Made by a program: the position numbers and the translations under genes
The notes under the pieces: model-generated
What the model was told of the DNA's origin: nothing
Databases searched by the model: none
What the model saw: only the letters and a program-made list of their open reading frames with translations
Assembly (NCBI GenBank): GCA_016930255.1
Contig: JAFGHB010000022.1
Span: 14,989-78,988 of the forward strand
Reading direction: 5' to 3'
Length of the DNA: 64,000 nt
Origin: Methanomicrobia archaeon
GTDB lineage: Archaea > Halobacteriota > Syntropharchaeia > Alkanophagales > Methanospirareceae
Part shown: one piece after another, positions 2,657-55,742 of the stretch
How the letters are laid out: the number at the start of each line of letters is the position of its first letter
Position numbering within the stretch: the first letter of the stretch is position 1

Positions 2657-4027
2657 ATGAAAAAAGGCGTGAAGGTTTTGGGTGTGATTAATGATATTTA
2701 TCAGAAAGCGCCGATATTGGCAATTTGTGTGCTTTTTTTAGTAGCTATGGGCACAGTTTGCTTTGTATCTGCGTCTAATACGGCGTATAGCGTGCCAATT
2801 GGGGCAGAAGCAGAGGATTTGGCGGATAATAATTTGGTGCTCGCTTTTACCGGGGAGTTGGCTAATGGCGCTTTCAGCTCTCTCGAGGGATGGTCAGAAG
2901 ATATACGCGTAACCACGGATTCGTCAGATTCTTCTTACCCAGCAATTGCGGTGGATAGCACCAACAATGTCCATATAACCTGGTATGATTACAGGGACGG
3001 AAATGAGGAGATTTATTACACCAAGTTAGACAACAGTGGAACGACGCTGGTTGATGACACCCGCATAACCACGGATTCTGCAATTTCTGGGGGGCTCAGC
3101 AATTGCGGTGGATAGCACCAACAATGTTCATATAACCTGGGAAGATTACCGGGACGGAAACGCGGAAATTTATTACACCAAGTTAGACAGCAATGGAACG
3201 ACGCTGGTTGATGACACCCGCTTAACCACGGATTCTGCAGATTCTTCTTACCCAGCAATTGCGGTTGATAACACCAACTGTATCCACATAACTTGGGAAG
3301 ATTTGCGGGACGGAAATGAGGAGATTTATTACAAAAATAATTGTGGCGGTGCGCCACCAGAAAATCAACCACCAATCGTGGATTTTACGTACTCTCCGCT
3401 CCAACCGATTCTCGCTGAGACTGTAACCTTCAACGCCACCGCTTCGTACGACCCAGATGGTAATATCACAGGAGCTTTGGCGATGGAAACAGTACCAACA
3501 CAACAGAATCAACGATTACACATTCTTACGTTTCAATAGGTGAGTATACCGTGAACTTAACCGTAACCGATGACAAAGATGCAACGAATAAAACGTCCAG
3601 AGTGATTAAAGTTTTTCCGGACGTGCCCTACTTAGATACTGAACCAGGCACCTATCCAAGTATCTGCGGCCTCCATAACGGAACGATTGAGATGACACAT
3701 ACAGTTAACGTCAGTACAATCTATCTCTATCCGTGTACAGGCACTGGCGGGCATATCGAATACGCAAAGATATGGAACGCATCGTGGGAGGGGGCAGAGG
3801 CACACTGGCATGGGTACGTGGACAATTGGCACAATTGTTCGTTCGATACAAACTTTACGCTTGTGGCAGGTGCGATATACAACTACACGATCCGCACGGG
3901 CTCGTATCCGCAAATCCATCATCAACCCGAATTGTTGACTGCAAAAGGGTGGATCACGTGCTCGGAGTTCGTGGACATCAACGGTAAGAGGCACGAGGGC
4001 TGGATACCGGCGATTAGATTAGAATAA
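2657..4027 (+). pseudogene. membrane-anchored cell-surface protein with three tandem ~47-aa repeats and a PKD domain. It is interrupted by two single-base frameshifts, which may be homopolymer sequencing errors.
   Basis: Three consecutive ORFs (2657-3115, 3108-3539, 3551-4027) read as one protein once the frame changes at ~3090 (G6 run) and ~3470 are allowed for. The N-terminus has a TM helix (ILAICVLFLVAMGTVCFV). The repeat is SYPAIAVDSTNNVHITWxDYRDGNxEIYYTKLDxxGTTLVDDTRxTTDSA. The frame-corrected PKD domain is DPDGNITGSFGDGNSTNTTESTITHSYVSIGEYTVNLTVTDDKDATNKTSRVIKVF. Confidence 0.5.
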
Positions 4028-18172: not shown

Positions 18173-19006
18173 CTACTCTTCACTGGCTGGTGAAGGAGTC
18201 AAAAGCGATTTCTCCCATTGATGCCCAACGTTGATAACTTCCCCCTGTTCAATGTCAACGAAAACCATTAATGTGACATTTCCTATTTTTATCGGAACTA
18301 CCGGGACTTCACCTGAAAAGTTCTCTTCGGGACCCGCTATCTCAATATGTGCTTTGCTTACATCCCCTATTTCGTATTCCTTGTTACGTATTTCTGCCCT
18401 AACCCGTTCATCCTTTAATGCAATTGCTATTGCATATCCCCTATCTTCTTCGCTTAAGTCGTGCTGCGGAGGCATCTCACCGTGCGTCAGATCTATTTCC
18501 GTAGCTAGCCCCCCGAAACGCTCCCATCGCCATTCTCCGTAATAAGGGTGCGGGGTAGCAAAATATCTTTTCCAATGAGCTTCTACTTGCACATCGTAGC
18601 TTTTACCGGCTTTTAAATCGAACGTATACTCAAAATGATAGGGTTGTCGATACTGTAACGTTATGTTTTCTGAGGAAGTTACCTCACGATCTCTACTATT
18701 AGGCACTCCAGCAAGCACGAGAATTCTCACGGGTAGGTCATCAGGCAGTGGTTCATCTTTGCTTGAACTTGAATACAGTGAGGAATCTTTATAGCGATAG
18801 GTAACATCTCCGGATAACGCCACCCGGTCCGTCGTTTCGTTGATACGAGTAACGTCCGTCCAGTTTAAATGCTCGATGTAGATATTACTATCTGGATTAC
18901 TGATTATGATGAGGTTCGTATGGAATAAAAGAAGATAGAGGACAATCAATACCGGAACGCCAACGGCAATGATTGCCTCAATGATATTCTTATTTCTTGT
19001 TCTCAT
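18173..19006 (-). CDS. hypothetical membrane-anchored protein; second gene of the peptidase operon
   Basis: 277 aa with one N-terminal TM helix. It overlaps the upstream peptidase gene by 17 nt. Confidence 0.45.
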   Translation of the reverse strand: MRTRNKNIIEAIIAVGVPVLIVLYLLLFHTNLIIISNPDSNIYIEHLNWTDVTRINETTDRVALSGDVTYRYKDSSLYSSSSKDEPLPDDLPVRILVLAGVPNSRDREVTSSENITLQYRQPYHFEYTFDLKAGKSYDVQVEAHWKRYFATPHPYYGEWRWERFGGLATEIDLTHGEMPPQHDLSEEDRGYAIAIALKDERVRAEIRNKEYEIGDVSKAHIEIAGPEENFSGEVPVVPIKIGNVTLMVFVDIEQGEVINVGHQWEKSLLTPSPASEE

Positions 19007-20138
19007 TTTTACTCTTCTGTTCCTTAACAGACGTAAACGTATCCGTTAGACCACTCGTCATCTCCGCATATATTCTCGTATACATTCTCTTCGAAGTTAA
19101 AAGATGCCTGCCTTGCCAATCGTACCATGACATCAAGTTTGTGCCCGTCCAGGTATTTGGGTCCCACAACGCGAAATTTTGCTGAGTGTCGTGATACCCA
19201 CGTACAACAACGGCATGACAGTTCCCCCACTGGCTCTCCTCGGTTATATAAAGTGGCCATTCGGTGTTTATTCTCTGCATTACGTGATTTATAGTACTCA
19301 GTAGTGAGCCCTGGTAATCGCCTTTATAGCAAGGAACATCGACTTCGTCGAAGTAAAGTTCTGCTTCTGTGGGAGACATCGGAGCATAACCATTCCATAC
19401 CCAAATGTCCCAGATATCTGGAGAATTGCTATTCCAATACTCTTCAAGCATTGCCGCACAGGTCTCACCACACGCTCTGCTGGCAGCATCGTAACCATGT
19501 CCATCGTAATACAACTCCCACTGACTACGCTGTGGTACATCAAGATATTTAGATCCTCTTGCGTCCATTGGTTGATCTGGATCATGAACGACCTCATCAA
19601 TCAGACCGTCTGAAGTACCGCGAAAAGCTACCTCATACTTCGTCTCATCAATAACTACTGATCCATGCAAGCCCCCGATACTATCTTCGAAGAATTCACC
19701 TTTGAGGGAAATCTGATTGCTCTTGTCGCTTAATTCGACGGCACACGCATACATTCTTGTAGCACCTTCATATCTTGTCATCGTTTTACCATGGAGATCC
19801 CTGTAAATCGGCTTAGCATCTTTGGGGACATTCCATCCCACGAAAATTTTCTCTGCTTTCCCTTCAAGATCCACGGCGTATGGCGTATCATCAATGGTAA
19901 TTGTACCTGCGAGCAAAAGGCAATTCTTCCCATCAATGGTACCGGATAGATACGCCTGAGCTGTTCTGTCCCCAGAAGGCTCGATTACTAGACCTCCTGG
20001 CTTATCTAAGCATAAAGTAATCTGCTTGCTTGTAGTAGCAGTTGATGCCGCATATTCTTTGGTCTGATCCTGAGCTATGGCCAGCCCGACACTGCATATC
20101 AGTATCCCTATTACGCCTATTACCCATATCTTCTTCAT
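18990..20138 (-). CDS. secreted papain-like cysteine peptidase, C39-like (Peptidase_C39_2-type)
   Basis: Signal peptide. The catalytic-Cys motif CGETCAAMLEEYW and the downstream His motif GNCHAVVVRGY resemble C39-like peptidase domains. Confidence 0.55.
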   Translation of the reverse strand: MKKIWVIGVIGILICSVGLAIAQDQTKEYAASTATTSKQITLCLDKPGGLVIEPSGDRTAQAYLSGTIDGKNCLLLAGTITIDDTPYAVDLEGKAEKIFVGWNVPKDAKPIYRDLHGKTMTRYEGATRMYACAVELSDKSNQISLKGEFFEDSIGGLHGSVVIDETKYEVAFRGTSDGLIDEVVHDPDQPMDARGSKYLDVPQRSQWELYYDGHGYDAASRACGETCAAMLEEYWNSNSPDIWDIWVWNGYAPMSPTEAELYFDEVDVPCYKGDYQGSLLSTINHVMQRINTEWPLYITEESQWGNCHAVVVRGYHDTQQNFALWDPNTWTGTNLMSWYDWQGRHLLTSKRMYTRIYAEMTSGLTDTFTSVKEQKSKNENKK

Positions 20139-21518: not shown

Positions 21519-22274
21519 CTAACTGCAACTATATGTCCACGTAGTATACCCTGAATTTACGGTTGGATCGGCGATAACAGAACCTTCACCCCAGATGTGG
21601 TCGTTCCCGCATGCTGAATTTTCGCCGATTATCCGTACCGTGTAATCTGAGCCATGTGTCTCGTCGATAGCGTGATACCACGCGTCTTTAACCGTCTCTC
21701 CGTCTAATAGATTATCTGCAAAATTACCGCCATCAACACAGTTCAGTGAAGAGGTTGTAAATCCACAGATCAAATGCACCCCATTGAGACCATAGTGGCT
21801 ACCCTTAAACCTATCTGGCTTTTCTGTTGAGTGACAGCCATGTAAGGCAATCCACTCCAAATCGTGATCTCCCCATTCGATCTCGTTGAAAAAACTCACC
21901 CACTTCGTATAGGTTGAAAGCTCCAGTCTGTTATTTTGCGCATGCCCCTGGTACCAGGCAATGTCGACACCATCGATGTACGTGGAATCTTGCCCATCGT
22001 GTTGAAAGTGCTCTTCTTTCGTGTTAGTATTACCTTTATCAAATTTTCGAGTCCAGCCAGCACTGCCCAATCCATTATAAAATGCTTTAGCGGAATCATC
22101 ACTATTTGGGAGATCACTGTGGGGCCAGCTATAATCTGTCACCCATTCAATGCCCACCTCAGGGGAGGTAGCATCGTTATCATCACCAGTCCCCGCAGTA
22201 GCACATGACATGAGAACCACCGAACTTACTGCTAGTATCAACGAAAGCTTCAAGCACACTGCTCTTCTTTTCAT
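21519..22274 (-). CDS. hypothetical secreted lipoprotein-like protein with conserved His/Cys motifs
   Basis: Signal peptide ending LMSCATAG; motifs IALHGCHS and GVHLICGF; no family recognised. Confidence 0.45.
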   Translation of the reverse strand: MKRRAVCLKLSLILAVSSVVLMSCATAGTGDDNDATSPEVGIEWVTDYSWPHSDLPNSDDSAKAFYNGLGSAGWTRKFDKGNTNTKEEHFQHDGQDSTYIDGVDIAWYQGHAQNNRLELSTYTKWVSFFNEIEWGDHDLEWIALHGCHSTEKPDRFKGSHYGLNGVHLICGFTTSSLNCVDGGNFADNLLDGETVKDAWYHAIDETHGSDYTVRIIGENSACGNDHIWGEGSVIADPTVNSGYTTWTYSCS

Positions 22275-30149: not shown

Positions 30150-31868
30150 GTGAATAGAATGGAGGATAATATACAATCTTCACGGGTGATATTCTTTTTA
30201 GGTGCTGGTGCATCCGTTGCTGCTGGGGTTCCCGATACGTATTCCTTTGTTGAAGAATTTAGAGAGAGTATAAGTGACGCTGCTAAAAAAGAATCAATTA
30301 ATCAAATAATCGAGACTCTAGAGGAGTGGAAAGGATCAGAGATTGACATTGAACTCTTATTAGAGACATTAACAAAACTTGAAAGGAAAGATGAAGAACC
30401 ACTAACATCGTTTTTTAAAGAAGATAAGTTCGCTTTAAGCGATTTAACTCTAATAGAACCATTGATAAAAGATTTGAAAGATTTTATTAAAAGCAAAGCT
30501 ATTGTATCAGAGGAGTCAATAAAATATTTGGAACCAATTCTTGGATTCTTGGAAGAACCTTTAGATATTATATCGGTGAATTATGACACCTGTATAGAGC
30601 AGTTCTGTAATGTTTACAGACGTGTCTATCAGGATGGTTTTGAACTTGAATGGAATCCAAAGACTTTTGCTAAGGAACACACAGATATTCGTCTTTATAA
30701 GTTACATGGATCAGTAATGTGGTATCAAAGCGACAAAGCAGGTTACGTCAAAGTACCTATTAGGACAATGGAAAGCGAAATAGAACTTATTACTCGTGAG
30801 AAAGCTATTAACCTCATGCTTTACCCAATGCAAAAGTGGGATTATGCCGAACCGCTTTTAGAACTGCTCGTGGAGATAAAACATCGTCTTGAGTCAGAAA
30901 CGTGCAAGTTTTTGGTTATCGTGGGGTATTCTTTCAGAGATGAACATATCAGAAGGCTACTTTGGGATGCAGCGAGGAAAAACAAAAAACTCACGTGTAT
31001 ATTGATAGATCCGAAGGCATATCAGATTTACTCTAATAAACTTAAATATTATGATGATGCGTCAAAAATTCCCTCATCATTGTATGAACGTGTTGTTTGT
31101 TTGCCGTATAAATTTGAGAAAGTATTCCCTTCCGTCAAAAATTATTACTTACTCAATCTGCAGAATGGTCTTGGTCGTTATGATTCTTTACGTCAACAAG
31201 AAACCATTGAGGGTAAAAAGATAGACTGGATTGCTTGCATCCCTGAGTTGGTAAATGCAGAACATTGTGAAATAGTAGAGCACTTACTTGATCGAATTAA
31301 TGTAACTAAATTTGAAAGAAATTTAGAATTGAACCTTAATTTGCTACTGAAAATGTTTGTTAATTACTCAGCCAGTAACCAAACAGAGAAGGCAGCTGAA
31401 TATTTCCAAAAATTCATTAGTTTTCTTCAAACAATCTTTGTGGAAAGATTAGATCTAGAGGTTTCGAGAGAGCCTAGATTCCCTTCTATTCTGTGGAATT
31501 GCATTCCCACCGATTCAGGTAGGAGTTATCATGATACGAACCAAATAAAGATATTCATTGAAAATTTGTTTGATTTTTGTAACGAGAGAGTAGAGTGGGT
31601 TCAAGAGTCAAGCGATGATTTTTGGAAGGTTAACGAAACGCTAAACTCACTAAATATATATCTGGAGGAGTTTGTAGATGAAACCAAGGATTTTGGAGCG
31701 TATATTACTCTGAGGACTAAAGAAATAGCGGATGTCGTAGGGGATGTCGAAGAATTTAGAAAAAAATACCAAGGAAAAGCGCTTGCGTCGAATGAAGAAC
31801 AAAATGAGCTGAGATCAAAGATTGTGAACATCGAGAAAAACATTTTAACAGGAATTTTAGGGGAGTAG
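30150..31868 (+). CDS. SIR2-like (SIR2_2/DSR-type) domain protein with an uncharacterised helical C-terminal domain; candidate NAD-consuming defence protein
   Basis: VIFFLGAGASVAAGVP (SIR2 GAGxS motif), IISVNYDTCIEQ (SIR2_2 NYD motif), IRLYKLHGSVMW (SIR2_2 KLHGS motif). It is 572 aa, and the gene plus flanks are distinctly AT-rich. Alternative start ATG at 30159. Confidence 0.65.
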   Translation: MNRMEDNIQSSRVIFFLGAGASVAAGVPDTYSFVEEFRESISDAAKKESINQIIETLEEWKGSEIDIELLLETLTKLERKDEEPLTSFFKEDKFALSDLTLIEPLIKDLKDFIKSKAIVSEESIKYLEPILGFLEEPLDIISVNYDTCIEQFCNVYRRVYQDGFELEWNPKTFAKEHTDIRLYKLHGSVMWYQSDKAGYVKVPIRTMESEIELITREKAINLMLYPMQKWDYAEPLLELLVEIKHRLESETCKFLVIVGYSFRDEHIRRLLWDAARKNKKLTCILIDPKAYQIYSNKLKYYDDASKIPSSLYERVVCLPYKFEKVFPSVKNYYLLNLQNGLGRYDSLRQQETIEGKKIDWIACIPELVNAEHCEIVEHLLDRINVTKFERNLELNLNLLLKMFVNYSASNQTEKAAEYFQKFISFLQTIFVERLDLEVSREPRFPSILWNCIPTDSGRSYHDTNQIKIFIENLFDFCNERVEWVQESSDDFWKVNETLNSLNIYLEEFVDETKDFGAYITLRTKEIADVVGDVEEFRKKYQGKALASNEEQNELRSKIVNIEKNILTGILGE

Positions 31869-33102: not shown

Positions 33103-33588
33103 ATGAATGAAATACGATACGCGCCAATTGGAGTTATCCATTCACCGTTCAAAGAGCCGCAGAGCATGCCCATACAGGCCGCAGCCGCACACGATGTCGA
33201 GGGCACGGTTGAGATCTTTCCGGAATACGCGGACGGGCTCACCGACATAGAAGGCTTCTCGCATATCTATCTGATCTTTCATTTCCATCTTTCGCACGGC
33301 TATTCCTTAACGGTAAAGCCCTATCTCGACGATCAGTTACACGGCGTCTTTGTTACCCGGGCACCGGCACGTCCCAACCCTATCGGCCTATCGATTGTGC
33401 GGCTCCTCAAAGTAGAGGGCGTGAAACTCTACGTTCGCGATCTCGATATCGTCGATGGTACGCCGCTTTTGGACATCAAGCCGTACGTTCCTGAATTCGA
33501 CGCCCGAGAAGTAGAGAAGATCGGGTGGCTTAACCAGCACGTGCATAAGCTGCATACAACAAAAGATGACGGGCGATTCATACTATAA
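33103..33588 (+). CDS. TsaA/YaeB-family SAM-dependent methyltransferase (TrmO-like)
   Basis: IGVIHSPF...RPNPIGLSIVRL...DGTPLLDIKPY are hallmark TsaA motifs. Confidence 0.75.
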   Translation: MNEIRYAPIGVIHSPFKEPQSMPIQAAAAHDVEGTVEIFPEYADGLTDIEGFSHIYLIFHFHLSHGYSLTVKPYLDDQLHGVFVTRAPARPNPIGLSIVRLLKVEGVKLYVRDLDIVDGTPLLDIKPYVPEFDAREVEKIGWLNQHVHKLHTTKDDGRFIL

Positions 33589-33691: not shown

Positions 33692-34357
33692 ATGGCAACC
33701 GTGTTAAAACAGCAAGAAAGCCTTAACGCAGCCTTTTATAAAAGAGCTGGCGTTGGTTTCGCATGCGCGGGCATCGGCGTGATCATCATCATATTTTTTA
33801 CTCGAGCTGTGGTTGTTGGCGGCTTCTTACTTATCGCAGGAACGGTTTTGATACGAGGAGGGCATAAATTTCACCTCGGTGCAGTGGGCGAAAATCGCGT
33901 GGCGAACGTACTGGCCCGCTTCCCTGACGAGTGGTTTATCTTCAATGACATGGTTGTCGGACGTTCTCAAATTGATCACCTTGTTGTCGCTCCTGTTGGC
34001 GTTTTCACCATCGAGACAAAGAACTACCGGGGCACGATCTACGGAAACGCGGCAAAGCAGAAGTGGTCCCAGGTTATCAACCATCACGAAACAACTTTCT
34101 ATAACCCGGTTAAGCAAGGGATCGGTCATTCTGTAGCATTGAGCAAATTCCTCGCGGAATGCGGTTTAAAGAACGTCTGGGTTGACACGATCGTGGTTTT
34201 CGCCGAGCCACGGGTGAATCTTAAGGTGTTCTCGCCCAAAGTGCCGGTAATCTATCTATCCGAATTACGTGAATTGTTAAACAAGCAAAAACAGGTTATG
34301 GACTCTGGCTACTGCACTAAGATCGCTACCTGCGTGTCCACGTTAATTCCTGCTTAG
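33692..34357 (+). CDS. NERD (nuclease-related domain) membrane protein
   Basis: N-terminal TM helices, then GENRVANVL...FNDMVV...IDHLVVAPVGVFTIETKNYRG, consistent with a NERD domain. Confidence 0.6.
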   Translation: MATVLKQQESLNAAFYKRAGVGFACAGIGVIIIIFFTRAVVVGGFLLIAGTVLIRGGHKFHLGAVGENRVANVLARFPDEWFIFNDMVVGRSQIDHLVVAPVGVFTIETKNYRGTIYGNAAKQKWSQVINHHETTFYNPVKQGIGHSVALSKFLAECGLKNVWVDTIVVFAEPRVNLKVFSPKVPVIYLSELRELLNKQKQVMDSGYCTKIATCVSTLIPA

Positions 34358-35444: not shown

Positions 35445-35554
35445 AGTTAGTTGCAATGAACCTTCTTTCCTCGCGCTTGTTCGGTCTACGCGTAACCTTC
35501 TCGCACCCGTTATCTTTAGGTTAGTAAAACTCTAATGCAGTTTCACCGAGAAGA

Positions 35555-36202
35555 ATGAAAATCGAGAGCATTCCCGCCCTGGGATCTTATATCTACGCAT
35601 TTATTGCGCGCAAGAGCCCGCCGTTACGGGACTTGTGTAAAGCGGTGGCGGCTGAGGTTACCGGAACGATCACCGCAGGACGGATATTGGATATCGGAAC
35701 CGGCCCGGGCTATCTGCTTATCGAGATCGCTGCACGCGCGCCCGGTTTAGAACTCGACGGTATTGACCTCTCGCCCGCAATGGTGAAAATAGCGCGTAAA
35801 AACGCAGCAAAGAAGGGCGTTGCGGACCACGTGCGGTTTCAACGCGCGAATGCCGCCGATCTGCCCTTTGACGATGGCTCTTTCGACTTAATCCTAAGCA
35901 CGCTCAGCTTCCATCACTGGTCACGACCGCTCGAGTGCCTCACGGAGATTCGTCGTGTCCTCAAAGCGCAGCACGAAGCCTAGATCTATGACGCGCGGCG
36001 CGATACCACGAACGAGGTCAATGCAGCATTCAGAAATGAATATGGCCGGTTCTTAGCGTTCCTCTTCCTGAGGCTCGTACGGGCGCACTCATCGGTCACC
36101 TTACGCGAGCTGGAAATGCTGCTCGCTGCTCCTGAACTGCGCTTCGCGCGAGCTACCATCATTGATCGTGGCGTCTTCCTTAAATTGCAACTCGTGAAGT
36201 AA
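35555..36202 (+). CDS. class I SAM-dependent methyltransferase with an in-frame TAG codon at 35981-35983
   Basis: ILDIGTGPGYLLIEIA (motif I), LPFDDGSFDLILS (motif II/III). The frame continues unbroken after the TAG (IYDARRDT...LQLVK) to TAA at 36200-36202, giving a normal ~215-aa methyltransferase. Confidence 0.55.
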
Positions 36203-38972: not shown

Positions 38973-39656
38973 CTACCGCCCCAAAAAGCTTTCAGTTACA
39001 TTACCCGTGTTCGAATAGCCGCGGCTTTCCCAGTAGCCTCGGTACGTAACGTCGTCCGATAATTCGATCTCCGTTATCCATTTTATCCACTTGTAGCCCC
39101 ATTTACTCTCTGCTACGAGCTCGAACGGGAACCCGCGCTCTGGCGGAAGCGTAACGTTGTTCATTTTATACGCCATGATGATATCATTATCCTGGATATA
39201 CTCAAGCGGAAAAGACGTGGTGTAGCCGTCATAGGCGTGGAATATAACGACCGTTGCATTTGAGTCGGGATTCGCTTCCTGTAGTAAATCCCCAACCAAC
39301 ACACCCTCCCAGAGAATCGTTACACCCCAGCCCTCGACGCAGTCCAATCGCACCACTTTTTTCCGGGGGTCGAAGGCACCAACGACCTCATCATACGAAT
39401 ACGTTTGAGGATTCTCCACAAGACCCGTGATTCTAAGCGCATAGCTCTCTTTGTCTACGTGCTGCGGGCCTTTTATCGAATTCTCTCGGAAATCATCGAT
39501 CGAAGAAAGGTCTTCGCCTTCATACGCGGTAATCTCAACATAATCCACGGGTTCTGCTTCTTCTGCTTCTTCTTGTTGAACGCAGCCACTGAACAAAATG
39601 CTCGCTGCAATGACGAATACCAGAAAACCAAAAGTGAGGAACTTCGAGTGCTTCAT
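38973..39656 (-). CDS. molybdopterin-dependent oxidoreductase (sulfite-oxidase/YedY-like catalytic subunit), lipoprotein
   Basis: Lipobox-like LFSGC; Oxidored_molyb-like LRITGLVENPQTYSYDEV...RLDCVEGWGV. Confidence 0.6.
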   Translation of the reverse strand: MKHSKFLTFGFLVFVIAASILFSGCVQQEEAEEAEPVDYVEITAYEGEDLSSIDDFRENSIKGPQHVDKESYALRITGLVENPQTYSYDEVVGAFDPRKKVVRLDCVEGWGVTILWEGVLVGDLLQEANPDSNATVVIFHAYDGYTTSFPLEYIQDNDIIMAYKMNNVTLPPERGFPFELVAESKWGYKWIKWITEIELSDDVTYRGYWESRGYSNTGNVTESFLGR

Positions 39657-48414: not shown

Positions 48415-49674
48415 ATGGGTAAGACGAAGAAGGCCGAAGGCGAGGAGGAAGGAATAAGGATAGCCCAGGTTTCGTGTGGCACACTCTACGGTAATGTGCA
48501 GCACGAGATAGAGAAGGCTGCAGCGGAAGTGGGTGCAGAGCTCTTCGTGCCCGAAATTGATCTGGATTATCTCAAGGCAAAGGTGGACGAATTCGGTTAC
48601 GACATGAAGACGAGCCTGGGTTTGAGTGTCGCGTTAGCGCGTGGCTTCGCCGTTGCGGAAGGTCTGAGCGATGCGGACGCGGTATTTCTGGCGGGCTGTC
48701 ACAAATGTCCGCGCGGGGCTGTTATTCGGACGGAGATCAGGAAGATCATACAAGAAAAGACCCGCTTGCCCATCGTTATGTATCCGTTTTCAGAACGGAC
48801 AAAGGCAGGGGAGCTGTTGACGCGAATGGAGGCGCTGGTGACGATTGTGAGACGGAGATGGATACTGGAGCGCACGGTGCAGGAGGGCCTTACCGCGGGC
48901 ATTGATTCCGGCTCGACAACGACAAAGGCAGCGATCATGCAGGACAACGAGGTGCTGGGAGCGACGTGGTCACCTTCACGGGACGTGATAAAGACTGCGG
49001 AGAAAGTATTCGAGAAGGCGCTGGAGATCGCAGGCGTGAAACGCGGGGATATAGAAGCGCTGGGGACCACCGGTTACGGTCGGCACCCGTTAGGAGAGCA
49101 TTTCAAGGCGGATCTGGTGCAAGAGGAGCTGACCGTGAACTCGAAGGCCGCAATGTATCTTGCGGGCATCGAGAAGGGAGAAGCTATGATCATCGACATC
49201 GGCGGCATGGACAATAAGATAATTACCGCTTATGATGGCATTCCTGATAACTTCACGATGGGCGGGATATGCGCTGGTGCTTCAGGAAGATTCCTGGAGA
49301 TGGTCGCACGTCGACTGGGCGTCGACGTGGTCGAGATGGGTAAGTTAGCGTTAAAGGGCGACCCGAATAGAATAAAGACAGACAGTTACTGCATCGTGTT
49401 CGGCATTCAGGATCTTGTATCCGCGTTATCAAGCGGCGCGCGCAAAGAAGACGTGGCGGCTGCAGCGTGCCACTCGGTCGTGGAGCAGGTGAAGGAGCAG
49501 TTATTACAGGAGATTGACCTCAGGCAGCCCGCGATAGAGGTTGGCGGGACTTCGTTGGTGGAGGGCGTGCCGGTAGCGATGAACGACGTTCTGGGCTTTG
49601 AAGTAATTGTGCCGCAGTATCCGCAGTATATCGGTGCCGTGGGCGGGGCGCTGCTCTCGTCGTCCTTTAGGTGA
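48415..49674 (+). CDS. BadF/BadG/BcrA/BcrD-type ATPase (methanogen-marker-15-like activase family)
   Basis: Acetate/sugar-kinase-fold motifs GIDSGSTTTKAAI and IIDIGGMDNK; N-terminal Cys-containing domain. Confidence 0.55.
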   Translation: MGKTKKAEGEEEGIRIAQVSCGTLYGNVQHEIEKAAAEVGAELFVPEIDLDYLKAKVDEFGYDMKTSLGLSVALARGFAVAEGLSDADAVFLAGCHKCPRGAVIRTEIRKIIQEKTRLPIVMYPFSERTKAGELLTRMEALVTIVRRRWILERTVQEGLTAGIDSGSTTTKAAIMQDNEVLGATWSPSRDVIKTAEKVFEKALEIAGVKRGDIEALGTTGYGRHPLGEHFKADLVQEELTVNSKAAMYLAGIEKGEAMIIDIGGMDNKIITAYDGIPDNFTMGGICAGASGRFLEMVARRLGVDVVEMGKLALKGDPNRIKTDSYCIVFGIQDLVSALSSGARKEDVAAAACHSVVEQVKEQLLQEIDLRQPAIEVGGTSLVEGVPVAMNDVLGFEVIVPQYPQYIGAVGGALLSSSFR

Positions 49675-49678
49675 CGCG

Positions 49679-50098
49679 ATGTTGCGATTTATCGGTGTGG
49701 TAGAGAAAGCGAACGAAAAAGGAGTTTCGCAGATACGAATTTTCGACGAGTTTCGTGACGGTTTGGAAGGATTAGATAGCTACTCGCATATAATCGTCCT
49801 CTATTGGTTCCATTTACGCGATACCGAGGAGGAGCGAAGCGTGCTCAAAGTAGTCCCGCGGCGACATTCGGGCGCGCCAGAAGTGGGCGTCTTCACCTCC
49901 AGGAGCCCAAGCAGACCGAATCCGATAGGGTTATGTGTGGTGAAGCTGGTGAGGCTGAAGGGGGCTGTTTTGTCGGTGAAAGGGCTCGATGCGTTTGAAG
50001 ACACGCCGATAATCGACATCAAGCCGTACAATTCACGGGCGGATTCGGTTCCCGATGCCGTGGTTCCACCGTGGGCACTTCGTGGTCCCAAAACATGA
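49679..50098 (+). CDS. TsaA/YaeB-family methyltransferase, second paralog
   Basis: RPNPIGLCVVKLV...DTPIIDIKPY. The track ORF starts at 49607, overlapping the upstream gene. Confidence 0.7.
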   Translation: MLRFIGVVEKANEKGVSQIRIFDEFRDGLEGLDSYSHIIVLYWFHLRDTEEERSVLKVVPRRHSGAPEVGVFTSRSPSRPNPIGLCVVKLVRLKGAVLSVKGLDAFEDTPIIDIKPYNSRADSVPDAVVPPWALRGPKT

Positions 50099-52493: not shown

Positions 52494-55364
52494 TTGGAGA
52501 TGAGTACATACACTAATACTGGAAGCGGATCTGAAAAGCGAATCGTGGAAAAGCTTCAGAACGTACGAATCTTTGTAGCTTCGCCGGGTGACGTAGCAGA
52601 AGAGCGAGAACAGTTGCGAAAGGTTGCTGATAAACTAAACCATTCAATCACGCATGAACTGGGATTCAACTTAGAAGTCGTAGGATGGGAAACTCATGTT
52701 ATTCCCGAAATGGGTGACCGACCGCAGGCAATCATAAATAAACAGATTGACCCGTACGATGTTTTTGTTGGCATCATGTGGAAGAGGTTTGGAACACCTA
52801 CTGGCGAAGCGGAATCGGGAACTGAGGAAGAGTTCAATATCGCTTTTGAATGCCGCAAAAAGTTTGGTATCCCTTGCATCATGTTTTACTTTAACCAAGA
52901 GCCATTCATGCCTCGAACTCAGCATGAGATAAAGCAGTTAGAGAAAGTGATAGAATTTCGAGAGCGTCTGTCTCAAGAAGGGTTAATTTGGGAGTATACA
53001 GGAGCCGAGAGGTTTAAAGATATTGTTGATACACATTTGTCGAAACTTATTGTTCAGTGGAGCAAAAGAGAGGAAGAAGAGACTTCTAAACCTAAAAAAG
53101 AACAAGTGCTTGAACCATATTTCGCCCAGCCATACGCATTGCAGGAGAACTTCGTGGGCAGGCAAAAAGAGCGGGAGTTGCTCTCGGAATGGTTAGAGCA
53201 GGATCCTACGTCTATGCTGGCATTAGTAGCGATTGGCGGTATGGGCAAATCAGCTTTGTCGTGGTACTGGCTTAACGAAGATGTACTGGGAAAAGGCAAG
53301 CAATTCGACGGAGTTGTCTGGTGGTCTTTTTATGATAAAGAAGCGAGTTTTGAAAGGTTTTTAGACAATTCCATACGTTACGCCAGTAGACAGGCGATTG
53401 ACCCCAAAGAGCTAGAATCAATGTGGGATAAGATGCGCGTATTTTTCAAATTATACGGAGAGAGCAATTACCTTGTGGTCCTCGACGGCGTAGAGCGGTT
53501 GCTTAGGGCATATGCCGGCTTGGGATCACCTTATCAGGGAGAGGCTGTAAAGGAGGATGAAAAACAGGAATTCCGTGCCTGTATTGATCCAAATGTAGCG
53601 AAATTTCTTCAATGGCTTTCTGCGGGTTATCCTCAGACTAAAAGCCTTATTACAACACGTCTCTTTCCTAAAGAACTTGAGGGTATTGCTGGATGCCGAT
53701 ATGTAAATCTGGAACGGATGATTAACGAAGATGCCGTCGAATTTTTCCACCGTCAGGGCGTTACCGGCGCACGGGCGGAAATTGAAACGGCTTGTGGTAG
53801 CGTTGATTATCTTCCTCTTTCTCTCCGACTGCTTTCTGGTATGATTGCGAGCGACCCCAAAAATCCAGGGGATATACAGGAATGGCGGAAATACAACCCA
53901 TTGCCTGAATTGAAAGGTAAAGAAGGACACCACATCTTAGATCTCGCTTATAATTCTCTGGATGAACAAAAGCAGAAGTTTATCAGCAGACTTGCGGCGT
54001 TCAGAAACCCGATGGATTACGATGCGGTTTCTATTTTCAACGAGTTTGGCACTGAGGAAAAATTTAATGAGGTTCTGCGTGAACTCGTGGAAAGGGGTTT
54101 AATATTCAGAGACGAGAAAAGCAATAAATTCGATTTGCATCCGATTGTGCGAAGATACTGCTACGAGCGATTAAAAAATAAAGAAAGCATCCATTCAGTG
54201 CTCATGGATTATTTTGCTTATATCCCAGCACCAGAAAAAGTCGAATCAGTGGACGACTTGGCACCAGTTATCGAGCTGTATCACCATACGGTAAGTACAG
54301 GCAAGTATGACGAAGCTATTGATTTATTTGGCAACAGGCTTGCAGCGCCGTTATTTTATGTATTTGGTGCATATCAAGCAAGAATAGAACTGCTTCGTGC
54401 GCTCTTTCCTGATGGCGAGGATAAACCACCAAGATTGAAAGATGAATCTACTCAAGCATGGACGCTGCAAGCACTTGCAAATAGTTACTTAATGTCGGGT
54501 CAGCCTAAAAAAGCCCTCAGAATTTTAGAAACTGCTATTGACCTTGATAAAAAAATTGGAGGGATGAATTGGAAAAAAGTTGGTCTGAATATTCTTGCCT
54601 GGATTCAAATGCAAATCGGGGAACTTGACCTTGCTGAAACAAATCTCAAAAAACAAATTGAATTCTGCCGCGAAATCAAAGACATAATTAGAGAAGCGGT
54701 TGGTCATGCGGAATTAGGCCGATTGTTTGCCTATGAGGGCGAATTCGCGGAATCTCAAGAAGAATTGAATCGAGCACAAAAAGGCGTTGATGATTTTAGG
54801 GAAAAAGGAGGAAGAACAGGGTATATTTCAGTTGTTAGAGCGTACAAATCCATCCGTTCCATTTTTATGTTTAACGCCGACGAGGCTATGAAAGCAGCCA
54901 AAAAAGCCCGTGAACTTGCTGTGATTGACTACACAGAACGAGATGTCATCCAAGCAGAATGCCTCCTCGGAGCCTCCTACTTGATGCAAGAGAATTTAAC
55001 AGAAGCCGAGCAGCATCTATCCGACGCTCTTACGAGAGACCGAAAAATCAATCTCGTGGAATTAGAGCCTGATATTCTGCTGGAGTTTGCTAAACTCAGG
55101 TTTAAACAGAATTACAAGAAAGAAGCGCTGGAAAAGGCGGAAGAAGCGCTGCAGATCGCGGACCGTTGCGAGTACCGGCTGAAGCAGGCTGATATTCACA
55201 ACTTTTTGGCGGCGTTCTATCTGGATGCCGGTGAGGTGGAGAAGGCGAAAGAGCATGCAGAAAAAGCAAAGGAAAGGGCGGAGTGTGGCTACGTTCCAGC
55301 GTTAAAGAAGGCGGAGAAGCTTTTCAAAGAGATCGAACAAAGAAGTAAAGTAAATAAGGGATAA
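52494..55364 (+). CDS. STAND-class NTPase: N-terminal DUF4062-like domain, NB-ARC ATPase, C-terminal TPR array; candidate defence/signalling protein on an AT-rich segment
   Basis: The N-terminus has VRIFVASPGDVAEEREQL...FVGIMWKRFG (DUF4062-like). The NB-ARC domain has Walker A VAIGGMGKSAL, Walker B YLVVLDGVE, SLITTRL (TTR motif) and DYLPLSL (GLPL motif). The C-terminal ~400 aa are TPR-like helical repeats. Low GC. Confidence 0.6.
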   Translation: MEMSTYTNTGSGSEKRIVEKLQNVRIFVASPGDVAEEREQLRKVADKLNHSITHELGFNLEVVGWETHVIPEMGDRPQAIINKQIDPYDVFVGIMWKRFGTPTGEAESGTEEEFNIAFECRKKFGIPCIMFYFNQEPFMPRTQHEIKQLEKVIEFRERLSQEGLIWEYTGAERFKDIVDTHLSKLIVQWSKREEEETSKPKKEQVLEPYFAQPYALQENFVGRQKERELLSEWLEQDPTSMLALVAIGGMGKSALSWYWLNEDVLGKGKQFDGVVWWSFYDKEASFERFLDNSIRYASRQAIDPKELESMWDKMRVFFKLYGESNYLVVLDGVERLLRAYAGLGSPYQGEAVKEDEKQEFRACIDPNVAKFLQWLSAGYPQTKSLITTRLFPKELEGIAGCRYVNLERMINEDAVEFFHRQGVTGARAEIETACGSVDYLPLSLRLLSGMIASDPKNPGDIQEWRKYNPLPELKGKEGHHILDLAYNSLDEQKQKFISRLAAFRNPMDYDAVSIFNEFGTEEKFNEVLRELVERGLIFRDEKSNKFDLHPIVRRYCYERLKNKESIHSVLMDYFAYIPAPEKVESVDDLAPVIELYHHTVSTGKYDEAIDLFGNRLAAPLFYVFGAYQARIELLRALFPDGEDKPPRLKDESTQAWTLQALANSYLMSGQPKKALRILETAIDLDKKIGGMNWKKVGLNILAWIQMQIGELDLAETNLKKQIEFCREIKDIIREAVGHAELGRLFAYEGEFAESQEELNRAQKGVDDFREKGGRTGYISVVRAYKSIRSIFMFNADEAMKAAKKARELAVIDYTERDVIQAECLLGASYLMQENLTEAEQHLSDALTRDRKINLVELEPDILLEFAKLRFKQNYKKEALEKAEEALQIADRCEYRLKQADIHNFLAAFYLDAGEVEKAKEHAEKAKERAECGYVPALKKAEKLFKEIEQRSKVNKG

Positions 55365-55394
55365 GGAAACAAATCCTTAGAAGAGAGAAAGAAA

Positions 55395-55742
55395 ATGAAA
55401 ACCAAACGAATCGCAATCGCGACCGTGATAGGATTCTTGTGCGGGCTGTTCTGCGCGTACGGGACGATCTTGATCGCAGCATCGAAACCGTCGCTTGTTG
55501 TTACCACCGGGCTGCTGGCCGTGGTCGTGTATAATCGCGTGCTCATCGGTCTGTTCGTTGGCCTCGGCGATGACATTCCGTTGCATCCCGTGCTGAGAGG
55601 TGCGTTGATCGGCGTCATTATCAGTCTCGCAATGGCGCTCATGAACATGATCGATGTCGGTATAAGTGACGGTGCAGCCTTTATCGGATTCGGCATCGTC
55701 TACGGCATCATCGCGGATGTCGTGGCCACGAAGTTCGCCTGA
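55395..55742 (+). CDS. small hypothetical membrane protein
   Basis: 115 aa, four hydrophobic helices. Confidence 0.4.
   Translation: MKTKRIAIATVIGFLCGLFCAYGTILIAASKPSLVVTTGLLAVVVYNRVLIGLFVGLGDDIPLHPVLRGALIGVIISLAMALMNMIDVGISDGAAFIGFGIVYGIIADVVATKFA

Follow-up and report, generated by a model that had tools for sequence, protein, structure and literature searches.

The open reading frame (ORF) that begins with the ATG at position 35555 of the window (the whole 64-kb stretch of DNA analyzed here) is a disrupted member of the class I SAM-dependent methyltransferase family. It is very probable that the gene carries a recent TGG→TAG nonsense mutation, an ordinary kind of event, which would leave either a null allele or a newly formed pseudogene. 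The frame runs for 142 codons to the TAG and then stays open for 72 codons up to a TAA (Table 1). The conceptual full-length product comprises 215 aa, with the stop context ...RRVLKAQHEA*IYDARRDTT.... Comparison with ortholog DNA shows that the lesion consists of a single G→A transition at position 35982. In the NCBI record, the shortened product is MBN1762169.1 (142 aa), which sits on a 106,725-bp contig and carries the plain CDS annotation 'class I SAM-dependent methyltransferase', with no pseudogene label.

Table 1. Features of the interrupted methyltransferase gene, in window positions.
Feature	Positions	Strand	Remarks
Methyltransferase N-terminal part	35555..35980	+	142 codons; translated portion; from ORF and translation
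Premature stop TAG	35981..35983	+	Stands in place of the conserved Trp143 codon TGG
C-terminal remnant	35984..36199	+	72 in-frame codons, predicted to be untranslated; aligns to orthologs over its whole length
Ancestral stop TAA	36200..36202	+	Aligned with the end of the orthologs, which close with ...LKLQLVK

Assignment to the family is based first on Pfam profiles, three of which score above their gathering thresholds: Methyltransf_25 (86.8 bits, cut-off 27), Methyltransf_11 (85.0 bits, cut-off 21.2) and Methyltransf_31 (79.6 bits, cut-off 27). Methyltransf_25 and Methyltransf_11 span residues 44-138 (E 1e-24), and the alignments of Methyltransf_31 (residues 42-151), Ubie_methyltran (residues 27-161) and Methyltransf_23 (residues 27-191) cross the stop. 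Motif I, LDIGTGPG, occupies residues 45-52 and corresponds to the GxGxG signature after β1, and the acidic residue D71, within GIDLS, is found at the end of β2. D46, G48, T49, G50, and D71 show little or no variation across the methyltransferase family. The UbiE/COQ5 profile (PF01209) also matches with 53.9 bits (cut-off 20.1), the aligned profile positions being only 34-168 of 233. The 'UbiE' label used in JGI records is a generic assignment and gives no evidence of a quinone substrate.

The position of the stop in the fold can be appreciated from an AlphaFold2 model of an ortholog, P0001 (pLDDT 91.1, pTM 0.89), which displays a full class I fold. According to the secondary structure of this model, the N-terminal part of the window gene encodes α1-α2, motif I (DIGTGPG), β1-β4, αD, and the first half of β5. 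Residue 143 lies within strand 136-148, and is followed by helices 153-163, 165-178, and 183-190 and by strands 203-205 and 208-214. What remains of β5, the three helices, β6 and β7 are still encoded by the remnant behind the TAG, and with them the conserved residues I144, Y163, R176, H178, and S179. The translated ORF does not have a complete seven-stranded core, as it ends inside β5 and the last strands are missing. Using Foldseek with the whole P0001 model, NovO (5mgz), CouO (5m58), and MMP1179 from M. maripaludis (3dlc) were retrieved at TM 0.77-0.79; yeast Coq5 is a distant structural match (15-16% identity). At the sequence level, the PDB matches span only residues ~40-138. The family resembles NovO, CouO, and MMP1179 in its GxGxG motif I, its Rossmann core, its size (~215-230 aa) and the full-length superposition. 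It differs from them by a sequence identity of just 22-24% and by two family-specific motifs, STLSFHHW and VRAHSS. Proteins of the STLSFHHW/VRAHSS family are common to ANME-1, ANME-2, and Methanocella MAGs and to MAGs of Dehalococcoidia (Chloroflexota), Omnitrophota, and other bacteria.

A search of 5.8 billion proteins retrieved many full-length orthologs of 215 aa, with 80-86% identity and end-to-end alignment. Since both these orthologs and the Pfam models span the TAG, the open frame behind the stop is real coding sequence and not a chance extension. The gene is, judging from these alignments, the orthologous copy of a 215-aa methyltransferase conserved in ANME-1-type archaea. In an alignment of 37 sequences, the stop column is occupied by Trp in nearly all full-length members, within the motif ...EAWIYDARRDTT...; in a set of 43 sequences, the 42 members besides the window gene have W in 39 cases, Y in two and N in one. 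At the DNA level, codon 143 is TGG in 16/16 orthologs whose loci were fetched, and the closest ones read GAA GCC TGG ATC TAT where the window reads GAA GCC TAG ATC TAT. That the orthologs run through position 143 with a TGG codon points to a lesion, not to recoding. The first-pass annotation had proposed a substitution-type interruption, not an indel, in a frame that would otherwise give a normal-length class I methyltransferase. Its coordinates and its peptide context, VLKAQHEA-TAG-IYDARRD, proved exact when checked against the ORF and its translation; the TGG with identical flanking codons in the closest orthologs, the Pfam alignments and the 215-aa orthologs bear out the rest. Orthologs ending at the TAG position, named there as the case that would speak against an interrupted gene, are not what the searches returned.

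The nearest intact locus, L002, shows ~90% DNA identity to the window from 32 nt upstream of the ATG (window position 35523, L002 position 4412) through the next two genes. Genes for Trypsin_2, NDK, and DUF2202 proteins are shared downstream. Upstream, the genes differ, with TrmO_N, NERD, and DUF169 in the window versus a TOBE/ABC transporter in L002. This arrangement indicates, from the comparison of the two loci, a rearrangement breakpoint right at the 5' end of the methyltransferase gene.

The state of the coding sequence on both sides of the stop was then considered. Between the window gene and five orthologs, Nei-Gojobori dN/dS is 0.14-0.26 before the stop and 0.22-0.30 after it; between intact orthologs, the same parts give 0.13-0.22 and 0.28-0.34, respectively. 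Thus, there is no relaxation in the downstream third, where dN/dS is no higher than between intact genes. In the smaller comparison (a 13-sequence set, with columns invariant in the 16 orthologs), the window gene has four private replacements (P9L, A11S, P55L, and S199A), and intact orthologs have 1-5. Only P55L stays private at an invariant column in the 43-sequence set, in which several intact orthologs carry 1-2 such changes. Codon 55 (35717-35719) is CTT (Leu), versus Pro in all 42 other members, and belongs to the GTGPGYLP segment, just past motif I. Decay beyond the stop was rejected as a description of the gene, as neither dN/dS nor the private substitutions in the two sequence sets show any excess. 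As the downstream codons are undecayed, the mutation is taken to be recent, with selection on the gene lasting until a short time before sampling.

The perfect preservation of the 72 downstream codons, with dN/dS like that of intact genes, is also what would be seen if there were no real lesion. As an artefact or a minority allele, the TAG could then come from a miscall, from a position of low coverage or from the choice of the assembler between strain variants, and the real or dominant gene would have an intact TGG. A MAG consensus can carry minority alleles, and the TAG allele was seen in no second sample of the same species: in the searched collections, the best full-length protein match reaches 86% and the best match among species-representative genome contigs 83%, and the exact 142-aa match, P0035, comes from an NCBI MAG and forms a cluster of one member. 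However, contig L001 of the Logan assembly (SRR13394437) is 100% identical to the window over 5,853 bp, so that the NCBI MAG and the Logan contigs agree base for base, TAG included. The two assemblies probably share one read set. The occurrence of the TAG in both makes a random error unlikely, and the TAG allele would be the real majority allele in the sample. Moreover, the other Pfam-annotated genes of the window look intact and match near-complete profiles; the assembly is not generally error-ridden. An artefact or a minority allele is, on this evidence, an unlikely origin of the TAG.

A 'methyltransferase' gene from a methane-cycling archaeon that has an in-frame TAG and an open frame behind it recalls mtmB, mtbB, and mttB of Methanosarcinaceae and Methanomassiliicoccales. 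The question is therefore raised whether UAG is translated here, by pyrrolysine (Pyl) insertion, a suppressor tRNA or near-cognate read-through, so that the full-length enzyme is made, possibly at a regulated level. The frame is open and conserved to the ancestral stop, and a functional read-through gene would look alike. Low-level natural UAG read-through exists generally in archaea and bacteria. However, several observations argue against translation of the UAG in this gene. The enzyme is a SAM-dependent Rossmann protein, unlike the corrinoid-dependent methylamine methyltransferases encoded by mtmB, mtbB, and mttB, and only class I SAM-methyltransferase Pfam families, no known Pyl protein family, match the ORF. 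In contrast with Pyl genes, the in-frame TAG is not conserved in the orthologs, which have TGG (Trp) at codon 143. In the P0001 model, this codon corresponds to a buried β-strand Trp, not to a catalytic Pyl site. A PYLIS-like stem-loop, which is an accessory and not strictly defining criterion of Pyl genes, was not found 3' of the codon: the 110 nt following the TAG have an MFE of -27.1 kcal/mol versus a shuffle mean of -31.1, hence a fold no better than that of shuffles (z = +1.12).

The use of TAG as a terminator is equally informative. In the 64-kb window, TAG ends 23/69 ORFs of at least 80 aa (33%) and 20/57 ORFs of at least 120 aa (35%). Genes terminated in this way include those of RadA, ribosomal protein S8e, DUF169, NTPase_1, and PfkB, for which the Pfam match extends to the TAG or close to it. 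In the loci of relatives, TAG represents 11-40% of the stops, and it is the own terminator of the methyltransferase gene in 13/16 orthologs. The share of TAG among stops is <5% in Pyl-using methanogens and ~17-18% in non-users (PMC12180501). With TAG at about one third of the window stops, compared with <5% in Pyl users, the avoidance of TAG that accompanies Pyl recoding is absent here. This organism uses UAG as a normal stop.

The lineage and the gene content of the window point in the same direction. RadA shares 87-89% identity with proteins that carry the names Methanophagales, ANME-1 or Ca. Methanophaga, from which the host is taken to be ANME-1/Methanophagales-like, not a member of the Methanosarcinales. 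No Pyl system in ANME-1/Methanophagales was found in a literature search. Among the ~70 ORFs of the 64-kb window, no PylS/B/C/D or MtmB/MtbB/MttB Pfam family was detected; tRNA-Pyl was not found in these 64 kb either, tRNA-His being the only tRNA. The scan for pyl genes covers these 64 kb of the genome. Taken with the ortholog TGG and the stop usage, these results make translation of the UAG highly improbable. A variant of the same idea is that UAG is partially read through in ANME-1, whether by an as yet unseen Pyl system, by a suppressor tRNA or by near-cognate decoding, with the full-length enzyme reduced or regulated. If true, this would account for the undamaged 72 downstream codons; it is nevertheless given almost no credence. 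The first-pass annotation had assumed a Methanosarcinales-type archaeon and offered Pyl insertion or read-through, with a nonsense pseudogene as the fallback. RadA contradicts the assumed host, the ortholog codon, the TAG stops, the ANME-1 lineage and the lack of anything Pyl-related in 64 kb speak against the first option, and the ortholog TGG together with the normal use of TAG as a stop supports the fallback.

A search for further cases of TAG read-through in the window, by means of stop-to-stop segment pairs and of the lengths of post-stop extensions, yielded none that was retained. The only other long post-TAG extension, 118 codons after the ORF at 38973-39656, comes behind an Oxidored_molyb domain that is already complete, and overlaps a DUF2202 gene on the opposite strand; it is thus attributed to chance.

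It is scarcely credible that the 142-aa stub works as a shortened methyltransferase by itself, or as one half of a split enzyme whose C-terminal piece is translated on its own. All SAM-binding motifs (β1-β4) are encoded upstream of the TAG, and the stub has an ordinary CDS entry at NCBI, but I144, Y163, R176, H178, and S179 as well as three of the seven core strands fall downstream. No other family member in the 37-sequence alignment ends at W143 (short matches are interrupted at another place or truncated by the end of a contig, and the short members P0054, P0060, and P0080 are disrupted at other positions). Moreover, no in-frame start codon follows the stop until the ATG at codon 188, so that an independent C-terminal product or a two-piece enzyme is implausible and the idea of a split gene or restart was rejected.

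Under the preferred reading, a recent nonsense mutation, the following scenario can be proposed. The conserved TGG codon of Trp143 would have become TAG through one G→A transition in the sequenced population. UAG being an ordinary stop, translation would end after residue 142, inside β5. Half of β5, three helices, β6, and β7, which make up about one third of the Rossmann fold, would be missing from the product together with several conserved residues, and it would be expected to be unfolded or inactive. Judging from the P0001 model, the 142-aa stub is almost certainly inactive. The mutated gene would then be either a null allele circulating in the population or a fresh pseudogene. This type of event is already well known. 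As in ordinary nonsense pseudogenes of prokaryotes and MAGs, one base turns a conserved TGG into a stop, while intact orthologs exist and the frame can still be recognized behind the stop. There is nothing out of the ordinary about the present one; it simply appears very young, having no secondary decay, and the public record lists the stub as a normal CDS.

Several features of the window were recorded besides the methyltransferase gene. On its 5' side, a gene-poor region of ~1.2 kb (31.9-33.1 kb) comes after the gene of a SIR2_2-domain protein of 572 aa (30150-31868). In one + strand frame of this region, stops recur at regular intervals; a tandem repeat was sought in 31-33.5 kb and not found. 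A NERD nuclease-domain protein is encoded at 33692-34357, and the SIR2_2 and NERD genes near the methyltransferase are possibly defence-type genes. The 64-kb window has two paralogous genes with a TrmO_N domain (tRNA methyltransferase O N-terminal domain), at 33103-33588 and 49607-50098. On the minus strand, about nine ORFs form a cluster between 15016 and 23637, in which most have no Pfam family; the exceptions are the ORF at 18990-20138, for a Peptidase_C39_2 protein, and that at 21519-22274, for a DUF6345 protein.

Possible frame interruptions elsewhere in the window were also noted. Three consecutive ORFs on the same strand (152, 143, and 158 aa) without Pfam family lie at 2657-4027. A G6 run between the first two (3089-3094) is the only homopolymer found at an ORF frame switch, and so the sole candidate for the 'homopolymer indels' mentioned earlier for this DNA. 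Relaxed Pfam scans of unannotated ORF pairs gave no match. At 52494-55742, a DUF4062 and TPR protein of 956 aa ends with a TAA at 55362, after which the frame is open for 125 codons; the ORF 55395-55742 in this open frame has its own ATG and no Pfam match. These are probably two genes sharing a frame by chance.

In the databases, the truncated stub MBN1762169.1, listed as a normal protein, can mislead pangenome or metabolic reconstructions. The locus also provides a worked example of how a nonsense lesion can be told from UAG recoding, by considering the codon found in orthologs, the use of TAG as a stop and the own terminator of the gene in relatives. For biology, the finding has little weight, since it would concern one recently inactivated accessory methyltransferase in one uncultured population of ANME-1 type.
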